Origin: Propionibacterium ruminifibrarum
Lineage (GTDB): Bacteria > Actinomycetota > Actinomycetes > Propionibacteriales > Propionibacteriaceae
Direction: 5' to 3'
NCBI RefSeq assembly: GCF_900289195.1
Contig: NZ_OMOH01000012.1
Span: forward strand, 30,001 to 62,000
Length of the DNA: 32,000 nucleotides
Made by a program: the position numbers and the translations under genes. The notes beneath the pieces were generated by a model. The model was not told the origin of the DNA, did no database searches, and was given only the letters and a program-made list of their open reading frames with translations. Position 1 is the stretch's first letter; every line of letters starts with the position of its first letter. This document shows, piece after piece, positions 10,552 through 31,996 of the stretch.

Positions 10552-11990
10552 CGCAGGTTGATACGAGGCTCGAGAGCAGACTCGCCGAGCGCGACGAGCT
10601 GGTCGAGGACCTGACCACCTACAAGTACGGCTGGCACGACGCAGACGACTACTCGGCCGCCTTCCAGCGGGGCCTCTCCGAGGATGTCGTGCGCAGCATC
10701 TCCGGGCTCAAGAACGAGCCGGCGTGGATGCTGGAGCGGCGGCTGAAGGGCTTGGAGCAGTTCGAACGCAAGCCCCTGCCCACCTGGGGCTGCGACCTGT
10801 CGAAACTGCGTTTCGACGACATCAAGTACTTCGTCCGTGCCCAGGACAAGCCGGCCAGTGACTGGAATGACCTGCCCGAGGACATCAAGAACACCTACGA
10901 CAGGCTGGGCATCCCCGAGGCCGAGAAGGCGCGTCTGGTCGACGGTGTCGCCGCCCAGTACGAGTCGGAGGTGGTCTACCACAAGATCAACGAGGAACTC
11001 GGCCGCCAGGGCGTCATCTTCACCGACACCGACACCGGGCTGAAGGAGTACCCCGAACTCTTCAAGGAGTACTTCGGCACGGTCATCCCCGCCGGCGACA
11101 ACAAGTTCGCGGCGCTGAACACGGCGGTGTGGAGCGGGGGCACGTTCATCTACGTGCCCAAGGGGGTGCACTGCACCATCCCGTTGCAGGCCTACTTCCG
11201 GATGAACACGGAGAACCTCGGTCAGTTCGAGCGGACCCTCATCATCGTCGACGACGACGCCTATGTGCACTACGTCGAGGGCTGCACCGCCCCCATCTAC
11301 AAGACGGACTCGCTGCACGCCGCCATCGTCGAGATCATCGTCGGCAAGAACGCGCGCTGCCGCTACACGACCATCCAGAACTGGTCGAACAACGTCTACA
11401 ACCTGGTGACCCAGCGGGCCACCGTCGCCGAGGGCGGCACCATGGAGTGGATCGACGGCAACATCGGGTCCAAGGCGAACATGAAGTACCCCGCCTGCCT
11501 GCTCATGGGGCCCCACGCCAAGGGCGAGGCGCTGTCGATCGCCTTCGCCGGCGAGGGCCAGCACCAGGACACCGGCGCCAAGATGGTGCACACCGCGCCC
11601 CACACGTCGAGCACGATCGTCTCGAAGTCGATCAGCCGCAACGGCGGACGCACCGGCTACCGGGGCCTGGTCGCGGTGGCCGAGGGGTCCCACCATGCGA
11701 TGTCCTCGGTCAAGTGCGATGCCCTGCTCGTCGACAACGTCTCACGCTCCGACACCTACCCCTACGTGGACGTGCGGACCGACGACGTGCAGATGGAGCA
11801 CGAGGCCACCATCTCCAAGATCTCCGAGGACCAGCTGTTCTACCTGATGCAGCGCGGTCTCAACGAGGACGAGGCGCGTGCCATGATTGTGCGCGGCTTC
11901 GTCGAGCCCATCGCTCGCGAGCTGCCCATGGAGTACGCACTCGAACTCAACCGCCTCATCGAGCTTCAGATGGAAGGCGCGGTGGGCTGA
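10548..11990 (+). CDS. sufB: Fe-S cluster assembly scaffold SufB
   Basis: 480 aa from ATG 10548 (ATGA overlap with sufR). [17 protein letters not shown] and the C-terminal [18 protein letters not shown] are conserved SufB segments. No intein is present. Confidence 0.95.
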
Positions 11991-13210
11991 TGTCGCAGAG
12001 GAATGGAGCTGTTGCCGTGGCCGAACCGATGAGCCCTGGCGCCGAGGCGGTGGGCAACGCCATCGAGACCGTTGCCTCGCATCTGCACCCGAGGGTCTCG
12101 TGGAACCTCGATGACCATCCCGTACCCACCGGCCGCGAGGAGGTCTGGCGGTTCACCCCGGTCGACGCGGTGAAGGGGCTCCTCACCAGTGGTCCCACCG
12201 GCATCGAACTCGACTGCGAGCTCAGGCTGCCCGCCGGCGTGACCGCCGGGTTCATCGAGGGCGACGCCGTGCGCGCGGCAGCCGTCGAGCCCCCGGCCGA
12301 CCGCACCTCGGCCGTCGCCGCCGCCAACACGGACCGGGCGCGCCTCGTGCAGGTGCCCGCCGGTCTCGAACTGGACGAGCCCATCGAGCTCAACTTCACC
12401 GGCACCGGCGTCGACGGCTTCGCCTACGGGCAGACGATCATCGAGGTCGGCGCCCATGCCACGGCCCAGATCCTGCTGCGCTACGAGGGTTCGGCCCAGG
12501 TCGCGGACAAGATCGACGTGCGGGTCGGTGAGGGGGCCCGCCTCGACCTGGTGACCCTGCAGGACTGGGCGCCGGACGCCGTGCACGTCGGACAGTCCTC
12601 CCTGCTCGTCGGGCATGACGCCACGGTCCGCACCGTGCAGGCCTCGCTCGGCGGGGCGGTCACCAGGATGCTCGAGCGCGCCAGCTACGAGTCCTCGGGC
12701 GGTGAGCTCGAGCAGTTCGGCCTCTACTTCGTCGATTCGGGCCGCCACGTCGAGCACCGTCTGTTCGTCGACCACAACCAGCCGCTGAGCCGCTCGAACA
12801 TCGACTACCGCGGGGCCCTGCAGGACAAGGGCTCACTCGGCGTGTGGGTGGGTGACGTGCTCATCCGCAAGGAGGCCGAGGGCATCAGCACGTACGAGGC
12901 CAACAAGAACCTGCTGCTCACCGAGGGCGCCCGGGCCGAGTCGATTCCGAACCTCGAGATCGCCACCGGTGACATCGAGGGCGCGGGCCACTCGTCCACC
13001 ACCGGTCGATTCGACGACGAGCAGCTGTTCTACCTGCGCAGCCGGGGCATACCCGAGGACGAGGCCCGGCGCCTGGTCGTCCAGGGCTTCTTCGTGGAGA
13101 TCGTCCGCCGGATCGGCATCCCCGAGGTCGCCGAGCGACTCATCGCCGTCGTCGAGCGCCAGCTGGACGCCATCGCCCCGGACTGGGGCGCCCAGGAGCC
13201 GGCCTCGTGA
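11990..13210 (+). CDS. sufD: Fe-S cluster assembly protein SufD
   Basis: 406 aa from ATG 11990 (TGATG junction with sufB). It has the SufB/D beta-helix C-terminus: FDDEQLFYLRSRGIPEDEARRLVVQGFF. Confidence 0.9.
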   Translation: MSQRNGAVAVAEPMSPGAEAVGNAIETVASHLHPRVSWNLDDHPVPTGREEVWRFTPVDAVKGLLTSGPTGIELDCELRLPAGVTAGFIEGDAVRAAAVEPPADRTSAVAAANTDRARLVQVPAGLELDEPIELNFTGTGVDGFAYGQTIIEVGAHATAQILLRYEGSAQVADKIDVRVGEGARLDLVTLQDWAPDAVHVGQSSLLVGHDATVRTVQASLGGAVTRMLERASYESSGGELEQFGLYFVDSGRHVEHRLFVDHNQPLSRSNIDYRGALQDKGSLGVWVGDVLIRKEAEGISTYEANKNLLLTEGARAESIPNLEIATGDIEGAGHSSTTGRFDDEQLFYLRSRGIPEDEARRLVVQGFFVEIVRRIGIPEVAERLIAVVERQLDAIAPDWGAQEPAS

Positions 13211-26606: not shown

Positions 26607-27398
26607 TCAATCGGCGGTTCGGCTTCCGGGACCGCCTCTGGCATCCTGCCCGGTGACCGGCCGCTCCGAGACCAGCGTCCCGATCTGCTCGGTGAGCTCG
26701 GCGACCTGCCGCTGCAGATTGGTCACCTGCGCCCGGGTGGCCGCCTCCTCCTCGGCGCTCTCCACGGCCATCGTGCTGACGATCCACGACGCGAGGGTCG
26801 CGGTGATGACGCCGATGAGCGTGATGCCGCCGATCATGAGCAGCGCCGCGACCGTGCGCCCGATCGCGGTGACGGGGGCCAGATCGCCGTAGCCGACGGT
26901 CGTGATGGTCACGAGCGCCCACCACAACGCGTCGGGGAAGGTCGTGATCGAGGTGCCGGGGGTGTTCCGCTCGGCCTCCAGGACGGCCAGCGAGGCCACG
27001 AAGGTGATGAGTGCCGCCCCGCCGGCCGCGTAGATCATGATGCGGCCCCGCAGGGCGAGACCCGCGTTGCGCTGCAGCACCCTCACGAGCGCCACGACGC
27101 GCAGCAGGCGCAGTGGTCTCAGCAGGGGGAGCGCGACGGCCGCGAGGTCGAACAGGTGCTGTAGGAACCAGCGCCCCCGCGCCGGTGCGAGGGCGAGGCG
27201 GACGAGGTAGTCGACGATGAAGACCACCCAGACGGCGTTCATCACGACCTCGGTGACCGTGCGCGCCGTGCTCCGCAGATCGGCGATGACCTGCCATGCG
27301 TAGGCGGCGAGGAAGACCAGGGCGGCGACGATCAGCGGCCACTCGGTGACCCGCTCCCAGGTGAGCAGCCGGTCAGCGCGGACATCACTCCTTGCCAT
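26607..27398 (-). CDS. Voltage-gated potassium channel (6-TM Kv-like)
   Basis: Selectivity filter TTVGYGD. S4-like arginine repeats LRPLRLLRVVALVRVLQR. C-terminal coiled coil. ATG 27398 (MARSD...) is preferred; GTG 27428 is possible. Confidence 0.85.
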   Translation of the reverse strand: MARSDVRADRLLTWERVTEWPLIVAALVFLAAYAWQVIADLRSTARTVTEVVMNAVWVVFIVDYLVRLALAPARGRWFLQHLFDLAAVALPLLRPLRLLRVVALVRVLQRNAGLALRGRIMIYAAGGAALITFVASLAVLEAERNTPGTSITTFPDALWWALVTITTVGYGDLAPVTAIGRTVAALLMIGGITLIGVITATLASWIVSTMAVESAEEEAATRAQVTNLQRQVAELTEQIGTLVSERPVTGQDARGGPGSRTAD

Positions 27399-27527
27399 GA
27401 CTGGATCATAAGTGTCCGGGGGCGGCACTGTCGCCGGTAGCGCTCATCCAGATCAGGCGACTCGCCGTGACGGGGATCGGTGATCAGCCCGGTGGCCCGG
27501 TGTGCCGCAAGGCCTCGTGGAGGCGCC

Positions 27528-27667: not shown

Positions 27668-28204
27668 TCAGCTGTGGAAGATGACGTTCTTGTAGGTGAA
27701 GTCCGGGGCCACCTCCAAGACCAGGTCGGCCGGGTCGTTGACGCCGAAGGCGATCTGGAACTGCACCTCACGGCCCGGCAGGAGCGAGGTGGACGGGCTG
27801 TCGCCGAGCTGCCCGGAGTCGTACACCTGGCTGGCCTCCTGGTTCCCTGACTGGAGCGTCGCGTAGAACAGGCTCGGGTCCCAGTTCTCGCTCGTGCCGT
27901 TGACGATGCGCACGGTGAACACGACGAAATCGCTGTAGCCATCGGAGCCGATCGCGTACTCGCCGGGGGTGAAGGGCTCGGGTGCGCTCACCTCGATCGC
28001 CAGTCCGTCGTCCCAGGTGTATGCGGTGCCGAAGGTGGCGTCGGTGCCCTGCGTCGTGCCAGAGGAGTCCTGGGCGGGTTCGCTCGCCGATCCCGCGTTG
28101 ACTCCGGCCGGTGCGCTGTCCGAGTGGCTGGCCTGCACTGTGCTGCACGCCGTCATGGTCAACGCGGCGAGACAGAGGCCGAGCCCTGCGATCTTCTTCA
28201 TCAT
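27668..28204 (-). CDS. Secreted lipoprotein, DUF4352-like beta-sandwich
   Basis: MMKKIAGLGLCLAALTMTAC is a signal peptide with a lipobox Cys. It is followed by a low-complexity Ser/Ala/Gly linker and then a beta-rich domain (FVVFTVRIVNGTSENWDP...REVQFQIAFGV) resembling actinobacterial DUF4352 proteins. GGAG RBS. Confidence 0.8.
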   Translation of the reverse strand: MMKKIAGLGLCLAALTMTACSTVQASHSDSAPAGVNAGSASEPAQDSSGTTQGTDATFGTAYTWDDGLAIEVSAPEPFTPGEYAIGSDGYSDFVVFTVRIVNGTSENWDPSLFYATLQSGNQEASQVYDSGQLGDSPSTSLLPGREVQFQIAFGVNDPADLVLEVAPDFTYKNVIFHS

Positions 28205-28300
28205 GGTGACTCCTTGATCGGAACAGATGTGGTGCCGGTCATGAGCTCACCGGCGGTGTGACTCAACTGTCGACCAGACCGTTGACAGCCACAACATGAG

Positions 28301-28326
28301 TGACTGATAAGGCCCCTTATCGGTCA
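28301..28326. promoter_or_regulatory. Imperfect palindrome in the lower-GC divergent region upstream of the HTH/hsdM operon (candidate operator)
   Basis: TGACTGATAAGG (28301-12), cc, CCTTATCGGTCA (28315-26): 12-bp arms with 1 mismatch. TTGACA at 28282-28287 lies 18 nt upstream of GATAAG (28306-11), so the palindrome would overlap a -10. Confidence 0.35.
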
Positions 28327-28394
28327 TTCAATGAAAAAGTGAAACAGTGCGATCTAGGCTTGGGGCACCGCGAACACAGGAGCACGGAGGCACG

Positions 28395-30325
28395 ATGAAC
28401 GGTCTTTCCCTCGGTGACGTGGCCCGGCTGGCGCGCGTCCGGCGTCCGGTCGTGTCGATGTGGCTCAAACGGCACAAGGACGGCCTGCCCTTCCCCGAGC
28501 AGGACGCCGAAGGCCGTGTCGACGCCGACGAGCTCGTCGACTGGCTCGAGGCCACCGGTCGGGGCAACAACCCCGATGCCCGCGCCGAGGTGGCACTTCA
28601 CAAGACGCTCACCCCGGGGGTCCCGGTCGAAGAACTCGAGGCGGTCCTCACCCTGCTTGCCGCCCGGGCCGTCACCGGTGTCGACGTTGTCGGCCTCGAC
28701 CGTGACGACCTGCTCGACCGCGTGGAGGAACTCGACCCCGATGACGAGTGGCTGCTCGACGAGACCGAACGGTGCTGGACGCCCGAACTCGCCGCCCGGG
28801 CCGATGCCGTCGCCGACGCCGCATGGAATGACGCCGCGGCCTACGAACTGCTCCACGGGCACCATCTCGCTCGTGGGGAGGCGACACGGCTCGCCGAACC
28901 CCTGGTGCGGCTGCTCGCCTCCACCGCACAGTCCATGCTGGACGACACGGGCCTGCTCGTCGATGTGCGGGGCAGCTGCTGCGATGTCGTCGTCGCGCTC
29001 GCAGCGGACGAGGAGCACGAGATGCCCGGGCTGCTGCTCGTCGCCGGCGACCTCGACGGGCTGCGCCCGATGCGCAGGCGGCTCGCGGTGCACGGGCTGA
29101 GCCCCCTGGTGGCCCGGCTCGACGAGGACTGGGCGCCACCGGCCGGTTCGGTCGTCCTGGTTCGGCTGTCCGATGCCTCGCCGGACGGACTCGACCTGCT
29201 CGACCGGGTCTCGCTGCAGTTGGGCGAGCAGGTGAGCCTGCTCGCCGTCGGCCCCTCGTCCCTGCTGGTCGACCCGCTCAGTGACACGACGGCTACGAGG
29301 CGCGACGAGTTGCTGCGCTCGGGCGTGGTCCGCGCCGTCGTCCAGCTCCCGGCGGGCGTGCTGCGGGGCGGCAGGGGCCGAACGGCCCTGTGGCTGTTGC
29401 GGGGAGGATCGGGGCAGGGGCCTCGTGGCGTCGTGCGGGTCGGCGATCTGTCCGGGCGTCGGTTCGACGCGGCTGTCCAGCAGGGGCTGCTCGATGACCT
29501 GCTCGCCAGCGCCGAGGCCTCCGGCTCGCATGTGTTCTCGGTGCTGCGTCCCGTGGCCAGGGCGCACCTGGTAGCCGGCCGGGGCCCTCTCGTGACGCCG
29601 GAGCGCGTCACCGTCCCGGTCATCGGGGCCACGCCGAGGCAGGACGCCGCACGCATGCAGCAGCTCTACGACTCGCTCGCCCAGGTGTTGCCGCCCTTCG
29701 GGAAGGGTTTCGATGTGGCCGTCGCGGACGACGACGTGCTGAGGGTCGAACGCATCTCACTCGGCGCCGCTCTCGTGCGCCGCGGGGGAGAGACGTTGCT
29801 GAGGCTGCGCAAGGGGCGTCGTCTTCCCGAACTGGCGTCCGGCGAGTTGAGGCGGTGGAGGGCCGAGGACGTCGCGGCCGGTGCGCCCTCGCGGGTCGAC
29901 AGGCTGGCGCTGACCGGGGCCGTGCCCGACCACGAGCTGACCGAGCCGGGCGACGTCGTCTTCACCGTGAGTCCGCGGCCCGCCGCCGTCGTCGACCGCA
30001 GCGGCGGTGCCGTGGTCGCCTATCCGGCGCGGGTCCTGAGGGTGACCGATCCGCAGCGGAGGCTGTCGGCGTCGGCCATCGCCGCGGTGATCAACGCCCG
30101 GGGTTCGGGGGACAGGGCCTGGCGCGGCTGGCTCGTACCGGTACGGGCCGTCGGTGCCGGGGACCCGGAGGAGTTCCTGACACACTTGGAGGGCTGGCGG
30201 GCCCTGCTGGAGCAGTGGAAGGCCCAGATCGACGAGCTGGGGGCCATGGTGATCGACTCGGCGCTGTCCGGGGCGGTCACCATCGGGGCGCGCGATGACG
30301 ACAGGAACAACGAGGAAGGCCGCTG

Positions 30326-30326
<1 letters not shown>
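28395..30326 (+). CDS. HTH - degenerate N6-adenine-methyltransferase-like - TRD-like fusion protein (643 aa), coupled to hsdM
   Basis: ATG 28395 is preceded by GGAGG (28386-90). The N-terminal LSLGDVARLARVRRPVVSMWLKR is an excisionase/MerR-type HTH. The core aligns by eye with the neighbouring HsdM at AGDLDGLRPMRRRLAVHGL vs GQELNEATWRMAKMNLAIHGL and VVRAVVQLPAGVLRGGRGRTALWLL vs LVAAMVALPEKLFRSTGIPVCLWFF. Motif I (DPCCGSGG) reads DVRGSCCD, and motif IV (NPPF) reads RLSD. The C-terminus resembles an HsdS TRD plus conserved helix. The stop overlaps the hsdM ATG. Confidence 0.8.

Positions 30327-31995
<1,669 letters not shown>

Positions 31996-31996
<1 letters not shown>

Follow-up and report, generated by a model that had tools for sequence, protein, structure and literature searches.

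The stretch of DNA analysed here (the window) comprises 32,000 nucleotides (nt) of Propionibacterium ruminifibrarum (contig NZ_OMOH01000012.1, positions 30,001 to 62,000), and its last 4 kb carry the beginning of a type I restriction-modification (R-M) operon. The first gene of this operon, referred to here as X, encodes a single protein of 643 amino acids (aa) that combines a helix-turn-helix (HTH), a pseudo-HsdM and a half-HsdS, and it is followed directly by a canonical hsdM. The original prediction, made from the letters of the window, had proposed an HTH, a degenerate HsdM and a single HsdS-like target-recognition domain (TRD) with its helix in one polypeptide, and this architecture was confirmed by a structural model, by Foldseek and by hhalign. 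Together with a palindrome upstream of it, X looks like a previously undescribed controller of type I R-M systems, found in hundreds of actinobacterial species. The features of X and hsdM are listed below in window coordinates.

28386..28390, plus strand: Shine-Dalgarno sequence GGAGG, 4 nt 5' of the X ATG (direct sequence reading).
28395..30326, plus strand: gene X, 643 aa, HTH, pseudo-HsdM and half-HsdS in one protein (open reading frame, homologues, predicted structure).
28395..28574, plus strand: MerR-like winged HTH, X residues 1-60 (structural model, Foldseek, conservation).
28575..28889, plus strand: HsdM N-terminal-like helical domain, X residues 61-165 (secondary structure, fold matches, invariant columns).
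28890..29594, plus strand: Rossmann-fold gamma-class methyltransferase-like domain lacking the catalytic tetrapeptide, X residues 166-400 (profile, model, Foldseek, alignment).
29745..30149, plus strand: single HsdS-like TRD, X residues 451-585 (hhalign against cognate HsdS, invariant columns).
30150..30269, plus strand: long helix resembling an HsdS conserved region, X residues 586-625 (model helix 591-623, hhalign, HsdS consensus).
30324..30328, plus strand: TGATG, one-base overlap of the X stop and the hsdM start (direct sequence reading).
30326..31996, plus strand: canonical hsdM, 556 aa, with DPCCGSGG and NPPF intact (Pfam, NCBIfam, PADLOC, orthologue alignment).

The enclosing plus-strand open reading frame runs from 28347 to 30326, with the ATG of X at 28395. 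Because this ATG follows GGAGG and all homologues in the family alignment begin at the corresponding position, X was taken to be 643 aa long. A GTG start at 28347 was rejected, as it lies 5' of the inferred -10 element described below and finds no support in the homologue N-termini. At the other end of the gene, the TGA of X (30324-30326) and the ATG of hsdM (30326) have one base in common, with GAGGAAGG just 5', in line with the earlier proposal that X is the first cistron and translationally coupled to hsdM. X also adjoins hsdM in other loci, where the two genes either overlap, by up to 20 nt, or lie up to about 20 nt apart. The hsdM product matched Pfam N6_Mtase (E 8.4e-105), HsdM_N (E 2e-25) and the PADLOC type I methyltransferase model (E 2e-175), and its DPCCGSGG and NPPF motifs are invariant across orthologues.

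X itself matched none of the Pfam, NCBIfam and PADLOC models, among them those for HsdM (PF02384, PF12161 and TIGR00497) and for HsdS (PF01420). Direct sequence comparisons with HsdM were not significant alone, either by BLASTP against the neighbouring HsdM (E 0.034 across 45 aa) or by hhalign of a 35-member X family alignment against eight cognate HsdM sequences (E 0.11). The N6_Mtase profile matched 1 of 35 X members (E 0.012), and a search of the family profile against PDB sequences gave a marginal match to HsdM 2okc (E 0.0019) in the segment after motif IV. The profile searches recommended in the original prediction had a divided outcome, with nothing from Pfam, NCBIfam or PADLOC and an alignment of the C-terminal part to cognate HsdS by hhalign.

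An AlphaFold model of X, with a mean predicted local distance difference test score (pLDDT) of 89.1, gave 118 Foldseek matches in the PDB at E ≤0.001. The top match was 7eew_A (E 2.7e-13), an 'intact' type I methyltransferase from Vibrio vulnificus YJ016 in which M and half-S are fused. Further matches included HsdM structures (3lkd, 3khk and 2okc), the type IIG enzyme BpuSI, PacII M1M2S and the HsdM subunits of the EcoR124I and EcoKI complexes, with E values of 7e-12 to 7e-7 for 3lkd, 3khk, 2okc, 7bst, 2y7c and 5ybb. The order of secondary-structure elements matches HsdM element by element to about residue 400; beyond that point the chain continues through a helix and a beta-rich domain to a C-terminal helix of 33 residues. 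The structure prediction that had been suggested earlier thus places X beside both HsdM and M+half-S structures. Because the direct sequence tests are too weak, the claim that X is homologous to HsdM draws on the predicted structure together with the marginal 2okc profile match, and for the HsdM-like fold the model was decisive. Within the HsdM_N-like domain, an acidic DPDD (X residues 114-117, 28734-28745) is invariant, as is a Glu six residues on; we know of no HsdM counterpart of this motif.

The catalytic motifs were surveyed in an alignment of 85 full-length X family members. At the motif IV position, right after predicted beta-4, X of the window reads R-L-S-D-A, and the family has Q-[L/Y/F]-P-x-P where HsdM has NPPF. 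The pattern [NDS]PP[YFW] was found nowhere in any of the 85 proteins, which makes canonical N6-adenine methyl transfer by X very unlikely. The earlier reading of motif IV as degenerate (RLSD) is borne out by these alignments, and the case that would have spoken against it, namely intact S-adenosylmethionine (SAM)-binding and NPPY/F motifs in X, did not arise, motif IV being absent in 85/85. The SAM loop had also been called degenerate. This is correct for X of the window, which reads VDVRGSCCD at the motif I position, with the Pro and Gly of the motif missing, but it does not hold family-wide, where the consensus VDPTGGGSDLL is nearer to a SAM loop, Asp190 is kept in 82/85 members and an Asp is frequent after beta-2. 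Since the family consensus retains this motif-I-like DPxGGxS loop, a dead SAM pocket is shown for motif IV only, and a site for a nucleotide or SAM-like ligand may survive in many X members.

The C-terminal part of X resembles one half of HsdS. Residues 453-625 aligned to TRD1 and the central conserved helix of cognate HsdS (hhalign, 78%, E 1.8e-5, 168 columns), in agreement with the earlier assignment of a single HsdS TRD followed by a helix ending in ALSGAVTI. Where HsdS has two TRDs and two conserved regions, X has one TRD and one helix (591-623), the end of which reads LSGAVTI in X versus LMSGRLRV in HsdS; this C-terminal helix is a probable dimerisation element. The TRD of X contains the conserved motifs TEPGDVVF, AVVD..GG, PARVLR and WRxW. 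With 40% mean pairwise identity and these invariant motifs, it differs from the cognate HsdS subunits, which are 25-53% identical across their whole length and have no such invariant motifs. Because the TRD of X is conserved and the cognate HsdS variable, the suggestion that X might be an alternative specificity-bearing partner of HsdM is disfavoured.

The N-terminal domain was modelled alone (residues 1-74) with a pLDDT of 93.6, and residues 1-60 adopt an alpha-alpha-beta-beta-alpha arrangement. Nearly all of its best Foldseek matches were MerR-family winged HTH domains (RacA, CarH, NmlR, BldC, SoxR and CadR), which superposed at 2.7-3.2 Å over 52-55 residues with E values (0.26 to 1) that are weak for this small domain. 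HTH_17 matched in 2/35 X members (E about 0.09) and HTH_3 in 1/35 (E 0.2). An HTH is predicted, as had been proposed, but by fold it is MerR-like, and the excisionase label originally given to it finds weak support. A family-profile search with the isolated N-terminal domain gave no match, and an EF-hand similarity obtained with the window sequence only (E about 0.04) was taken as chance. The putative recognition helix of X in the window is RRPVVSMWLKR, followed by an RGNNP motif. This second HTH helix (RPVVSMWR.R) is near-invariant across the family, and the HTH is the most conserved domain of X, with a mean pairwise identity of 56% versus 40% for the TRD and 35% for the Rossmann domain.

Relatives of X are numerous. 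A word-indexed search returned 53, carried in the database under the name 'hypothetical protein', and an exhaustive profile search returned 1,827 representatives of 50%-identity clusters at E ≤0.001 (589 at ≤1e-30), of which the best 150 were essentially all full-length. They occur in 270 genomes, counting one genome per species, and among the matches listed (80 of the 270) all genomes belong to Actinomycetota. The hosts include Propionibacteriaceae, Arthrobacter/Pseudarthrobacter, Microbacteriaceae, Cellulosimicrobium, Pseudonocardiaceae, Rhodococcus and Actinomyces, and the orders span Propionibacteriales, Micrococcales, Pseudonocardiales, Mycobacteriales and others. A phage origin was rejected, as a search of a viral contig collection turned up no relative.

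The gene order X-hsdM-hsdS-(inserts)-hsdR was invariable in seven diverse loci, and no conserved small gene was found within the operon in these seven. A survey of homologues for linkage to R-M genes had been advised, and among non-redundant loci with enough sequence, X was followed by hsdM within 400 nt in 68/71, accompanied by hsdS in 66/69 and by hsdR within 9 kb in 60/64. The reverse approach gave the same picture: all three loci seeded from HsdM (66-68% identical to HsdM of the window; Nakamurella, Intrasporangium and one other) have an X of 677-713 aa directly upstream, and all three carry a perfect copy of the palindrome described below. The linkage is to one specific HsdM/HsdR clade, 56-77% identical across loci. 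In a syntenic locus that is 75% identical, hsdS and hsdR follow right after hsdM, so that the same is expected beyond 32 kb in the window. The wider defence system that the original prediction had envisaged there is not needed, given that syntenic loci go on with hsdS and hsdR.

Some loci depart from this organisation. An orphan X in Mumia quercus (L074, 8974-11025) has the palindrome CGATAA-GGGCCC-TTATCA, but the 9 kb downstream of this X contain no hsdM, hsdS or hsdR. In L067, X and hsdM are separated by two genes (10797-12628) that resemble an AbiEi/AbiEii pair, as read from their translations. Inside the operon of L006 (14068-17105) lie a HEPN gene (weak Pfam match), an unannotated 200-aa gene and a Schlafen/AlbA_2 ATPase, and a DUF1016/YhcG nuclease-like gene stands between hsdS and hsdR in L007 (13859-14956) and L170 (8847-9953).

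The region upstream of X contains the second component of the proposed controller, a putative operator with the promoter elements around it.

28304..28321, no strand: putative operator palindrome TGATAA-GGCCCC-TTATCG (inverted repeat, family conservation).
28355..28360, plus strand: putative -10 hexamer TAGGCT of the X-hsdM promoter (conserved TAnnnT).
28266..28271, minus strand: putative -10-like GACAGT of a divergent promoter (A/T pattern; the assignment in the window is approximate).

A palindrome at 28301-28326 had been noticed upstream of X in the original prediction; it is a real inverted repeat, which in its extended form covers 28297-28330 (arms 28297-28312 and 28315-28330), and it is conserved across the family with the consensus (T/C)GATAA-N6-TTATC(A/G) and a G+C-rich spacer. 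Genome-derived loci were collected with a peptide pattern based on the putative recognition helix of X. At a threshold of at least 10 of the 12 core positions, the operator was present 5' of X in 88 of 90 such loci (61 of them perfect) and in 60 of 63 independent metagenome loci, a level of match that random 360-nt windows reach in about 0.4% of cases. It is near-invariant even though the X proteins themselves are 29-45% identical. The spacing is equally strict: GATAA-Nx-TTATC occurred 84 times at x=6 and never at x=3-5 or 7-10. The operator moves with the X module into differing genomic neighbourhoods. Within 1.56 Mb of fetched DNA it was found at 11 of 12 positions or better once per locus, and the only other such sites were second copies in L023 and L043. 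These, together with a copy in L084 that matches at 10/12, lie 97-104 nt 5' of hsdR genes that insertions have moved 2.5-5.7 kb away from the operon.

L023, 7526-7543: second operator copy 5' of a detached hsdR (motif scan).
L043, 19346-19363: second operator copy 5' of a detached hsdR (motif scan).
L084, 12634-12651: second operator copy 5' of a detached hsdR (motif scan).

The distance between the operator and the promoter elements is also conserved. A TAnnnT sequence lies 31-34 nt 3' of the palindrome in 72 of 83 loci and in 57 of 60 metagenome loci, and it recurs at the same 33-nt offset from the second operators of L043 and L084. A scan of 28100-28500 for sigma-70 consensus promoters and terminators found nothing, and the X promoter was called from the conserved TAnnnT alone, which would place the start of X-hsdM transcription near 28367. 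On the other side, an A at -39 relative to the palindrome (63/83 loci) and a T at -35 (62/83) fit a minus-strand (T)AnnnT located 33 nt upstream. Judged by these positions, the palindrome would be centred about 53 bp upstream of two divergent putative transcription starts. The conserved operator (T/C)GATAA-N6-TTATC(A/G) and its fixed promoter geometry are new here.

The conservation of the HTH (56% identity, near-invariant helix) mirrors that of the half-sites of the operator, making the HTH a candidate reader of the site. In metagenome contigs L148 and L099, the strongest divergence of the helix (RQAVTNW and RSAVSNW, respectively) is paired with a divergent palindrome at the same spot and with the same spacing, a covariation that is suggestive. 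The variants at the canonical position are as follows.

L148: TGTTTA-N6-TAAACG.
L099: TGTGAA-N6-TTGTCA.
L007, 8893-8924: CGGTAA-N6-TAACCG.

A link between the helix variant PVV[ST]TW (versus PVVSMW) and the odd operator of L007 was rejected, since most T-variants keep the canonical operator. The shape of the operator is in addition that of the bipartite palindromic target of a half-HsdS homodimer. As the TRD of X is unusually conserved, the TRDs may read part of the site.

We compared X with the families that it most resembles. C proteins have an Xre-type HTH, a length of about 80-100 aa and paired operators. Like X, proteins such as C.PvuII, C.AhdI and C.Esp1396I are encoded by the gene that heads an operon including the restriction gene, with a conserved palindrome 5' of their own gene, and a role in the timing or homeostasis of restriction is plausible for both; X differs in its 643 aa, its MerR-like HTH by fold, its single palindrome and its type I system. 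M.SsoII (PMC3978073) and M.Ecl18kI (PMC2760811) are methyltransferases whose N-terminal DNA-binding region regulates their own R-M system, in the case of M.Ecl18kI through an operator located where the R and M genes diverge (PMC2760811). Judged by its predicted fold and promoter geometry, X shares with them an N-terminal DNA-binding domain on a methyltransferase-fold body and a palindromic operator between divergent genes, and in the reading favoured here it would likewise control its own system. In contrast, M.SsoII and M.Ecl18kI are active C5-cytosine type II methyltransferases and the sole modification enzymes of their systems, whereas X has a gamma N6-type fold without the catalytic motif, an HsdS-like TRD and a separate canonical HsdM in a type I operon.

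RptR is a small repressor encoded beside type I R-M genes in Gammaproteobacteria that binds TAGCTA repeats (PMC12255303). It would share with X the position of a dedicated transcription factor that heads a type I R-M or defence island and acts on its promoter, but it is small, has no methyltransferase or target-recognition body and comes from a different phylum. The best structural matches over the methyltransferase and TRD parts of X, 7eew and BpuSI (3s1s; E 2.7e-13 and 1.4e-10), resemble X, as do type IIG enzymes, in joining methyltransferase and specificity modules in one polypeptide. Both 7eew and BpuSI are active enzymes, however, with structures deposited as those of a methyltransferase or a restriction enzyme, and X lacks motif IV, has an added HTH and carries a TRD that is conserved, not variable. 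Ronin is a module derived from type I M and S subunits, the function of which needs no methyltransferase catalysis (10.1101/2023.04.06.535777). X, with its catalytic motif absent, would also derive from such subunits. Unlike X, Ronin consists of separate HsdM and HsdS with the 61-aa toxin RonA and usually no hsdR; X is one fused polypeptide that includes an HTH, encoded in a complete hsdMSR operon (hsdR in 60/64 loci) and with no linked toxin. X falls outside each of these families and is best described as an R-M controller built on an unexpected scaffold. Full-text literature searches on the motif and on type I controllers turned up no account of the X family.

Altogether, our reading, of moderate confidence, is that X descends from a fused M+half-S methyltransferase, has become a pseudo-enzyme and acts, probably as a dimer, as the sequence-specific transcriptional controller of its operon. 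An ancestral fusion of HsdM and half-HsdS would have lost (N/D)PP(Y/F), acquired an N-terminal MerR-like winged HTH and become a dedicated transcriptional controller of the four-gene type I operon X-hsdM-hsdS-hsdR. X would dimerise, probably via its HsdS-like C-terminal helix as half-HsdS proteins do, and the dimer would bind the palindromic operator TGATAA-N6-TTATCA, which would sit symmetrically between the X promoter and the divergent promoter. From there it would set the expression of the whole R-M operon, and where hsdR has split off, X would also control hsdR through a second operator-promoter cassette. We infer operator binding, dimerisation and the regulation of transcription by this binding from the comparative evidence above. 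Of the three roles first offered for X, that of a controller gains from the near-invariant operator, its fixed distance to the -10 element and its copies at detached hsdR genes; the other two are not favoured. Activation in the manner of C proteins is favoured by the location of the operator upstream of -35 and by the advantage of a delayed hsdR where the hsdR promoter has an operator, but a bulky M2S-like dimer could equally repress by occluding both promoters. SAM, free HsdM, HsdS or HsdR, and DNA mimics are candidates for what the dead M-S body senses.

Several observations weigh against this assignment. The case is built from genome comparisons and structure predictions. With a body of 640 aa in which both the pseudo-methyltransferase and the TRD are well conserved, X goes far beyond what an autoregulator needs, so that regulation may be only part of its role, and the motif-I-like loop and the acidic residues at the end of beta-2 that the family keeps make ligand binding or a non-canonical activity possible. 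Second operators accompany a detached hsdR in only 3 of 31 loci, with none in the other 28. The covariation between helix and operator involves 2-3 loci whose X is divergent throughout, and the common M-to-T change in the helix leaves the operator unaltered. Finally, because the genome-derived loci were retrieved by a helix pattern, that sample is conditioned on a conserved helix; the metagenome sample also used a TRD pattern and, together with the HsdM-seeded loci, this reduced the conditioning but did not remove it.

Other explanations of the same data were considered. X might mainly be a fourth structural subunit of the restriction complex, concerned with assembly, restriction alleviation or targeting, with autoregulation through HTH and operator as a secondary function. 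Such a role would suit the conservation of the full HsdM-like body, the TRD and the helix, the one-base coupling to hsdM and close spacing elsewhere, and the association with a single HsdM/HsdR clade (56-77% identical), and type I systems are known to be controlled through assembly or proteolysis (PMC12707154). We nevertheless consider it unlikely, since a subunit role alone leaves the invariant operator and its copies at hsdR unexplained, and the orphan X of L074 has an operator without hsdMSR. A quite improbable alternative is that X is a decoy sensor, the dimer of which mimics the M2S1 groove and is released from the operator by ArdA or Ocr, switching the R-M operon and the divergent exported-protein genes. 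The idea takes up the retention of an M+half-S fold without catalysis, the fact that the top structural match, 7eew, is an M+half-S methyltransferase crystallised with Ocr, and the catalysis-independent HsdMS decoys of Ronin that are triggered by Ocr and ArdA (10.1101/2023.04.06.535777). It is, however, purely conceptual; no effector or toxin gene is consistently linked to X, and the operon has a functional hsdR, which most Ronin loci do not. A related proposal, which we regard as rather unlikely, would make the X dimer a dead, M2S1-like clamp acting as a 'guard'. Its TRDs would read the TAA-N6-TTA core and its HTHs the outer bases, ligands in the groove (ArdA/Ocr, free HsdM/HsdS/HsdR or SAM) would set occupancy, and the R-M and divergent exported-protein operons would be switched on when a phage or plasmid disarms restriction.

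The two remaining alternatives concern catalysis and the palindrome. The DPTGGGS loop of the family, the acidic residues that follow beta-2 and a motif III-like D..F/W could belong to an active methyltransferase with an unconventional Q-[Y/F/L]-P-x-P, methylating the palindrome, which resembles the bipartite type I site of a half-HsdS dimer, or another fixed site. With [NDS]PP[YFW] in 0/85 members, with neither the Pro and Gly of motif I nor anything other than RLSD at motif IV in the window, and with no methyltransferase profile matching X itself, this is extremely improbable. As the binding of X to the palindrome is an inference, a host regulator with no relation to X could instead occupy the palindrome, and X would then have another DNA target. 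We find this highly improbable: in 1.56 Mb of actinobacterial flanking DNA from many genera the motif lies only 5' of X and of detached hsdR, it travels with the X module across neighbourhoods, and it is altered where the helix of X is most divergent.

The assignment of X as an operon controller would bear on how type I systems are regulated. Their control has been described as post-translational, through ClpXP proteolysis or assembly (2025 review on host-dependent R-M, PMC12707154), and a dedicated type I transcription factor, RptR, was described only in 2025. The X family is large and unannotated, and it points to a distinct four-gene type I architecture with an almost invariant operator. 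If the assignment is true, the modification and specificity modules of a restriction enzyme have been re-used as a transcription factor, and a defined operator-regulator pair would become usable in high-G+C Gram-positive bacteria. It would also help to explain how R-M systems become established without killing a new host, and would make industrial Propionibacterium, Arthrobacter and related strains easier to annotate and to manipulate genetically.

The operator region is shared with a gene that diverges from X.

27668..28204, minus strand: divergent gene, predicted lipoprotein of 178 aa, sharing the intergenic operator region (open reading frame, lipobox-like N-terminus).

Homologues of this lipoprotein, which matched no family, were found at the same position in six other loci, and the gene is possibly co-regulated with the X operon. 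Elsewhere, the genes divergent from X also encode unannotated exported or membrane-anchored proteins, including lipoproteins, proteins with an Rv1352/Rv1906c domain (23 loci), a family of 465-500 aa and DUF4352 proteins; examples lie upstream of X in L170 (1128-3789, minus strand), L171 (1121-3664, minus strand), L017, L029 and others. PADLOC and NCBIfam searches found no function for them. Because they fall into several families, they were not counted as an obligatory component. Possible roles for them are those of co-regulated cargo or of a system partner not yet recognised. Further to the left in the window, between a SpoU-type methylase gene and the lipoprotein gene, an open reading frame at 26607-27428 (minus strand) carries the TVGYGD signature of a potassium-channel selectivity filter; it is absent from the otherwise syntenic locus L001.

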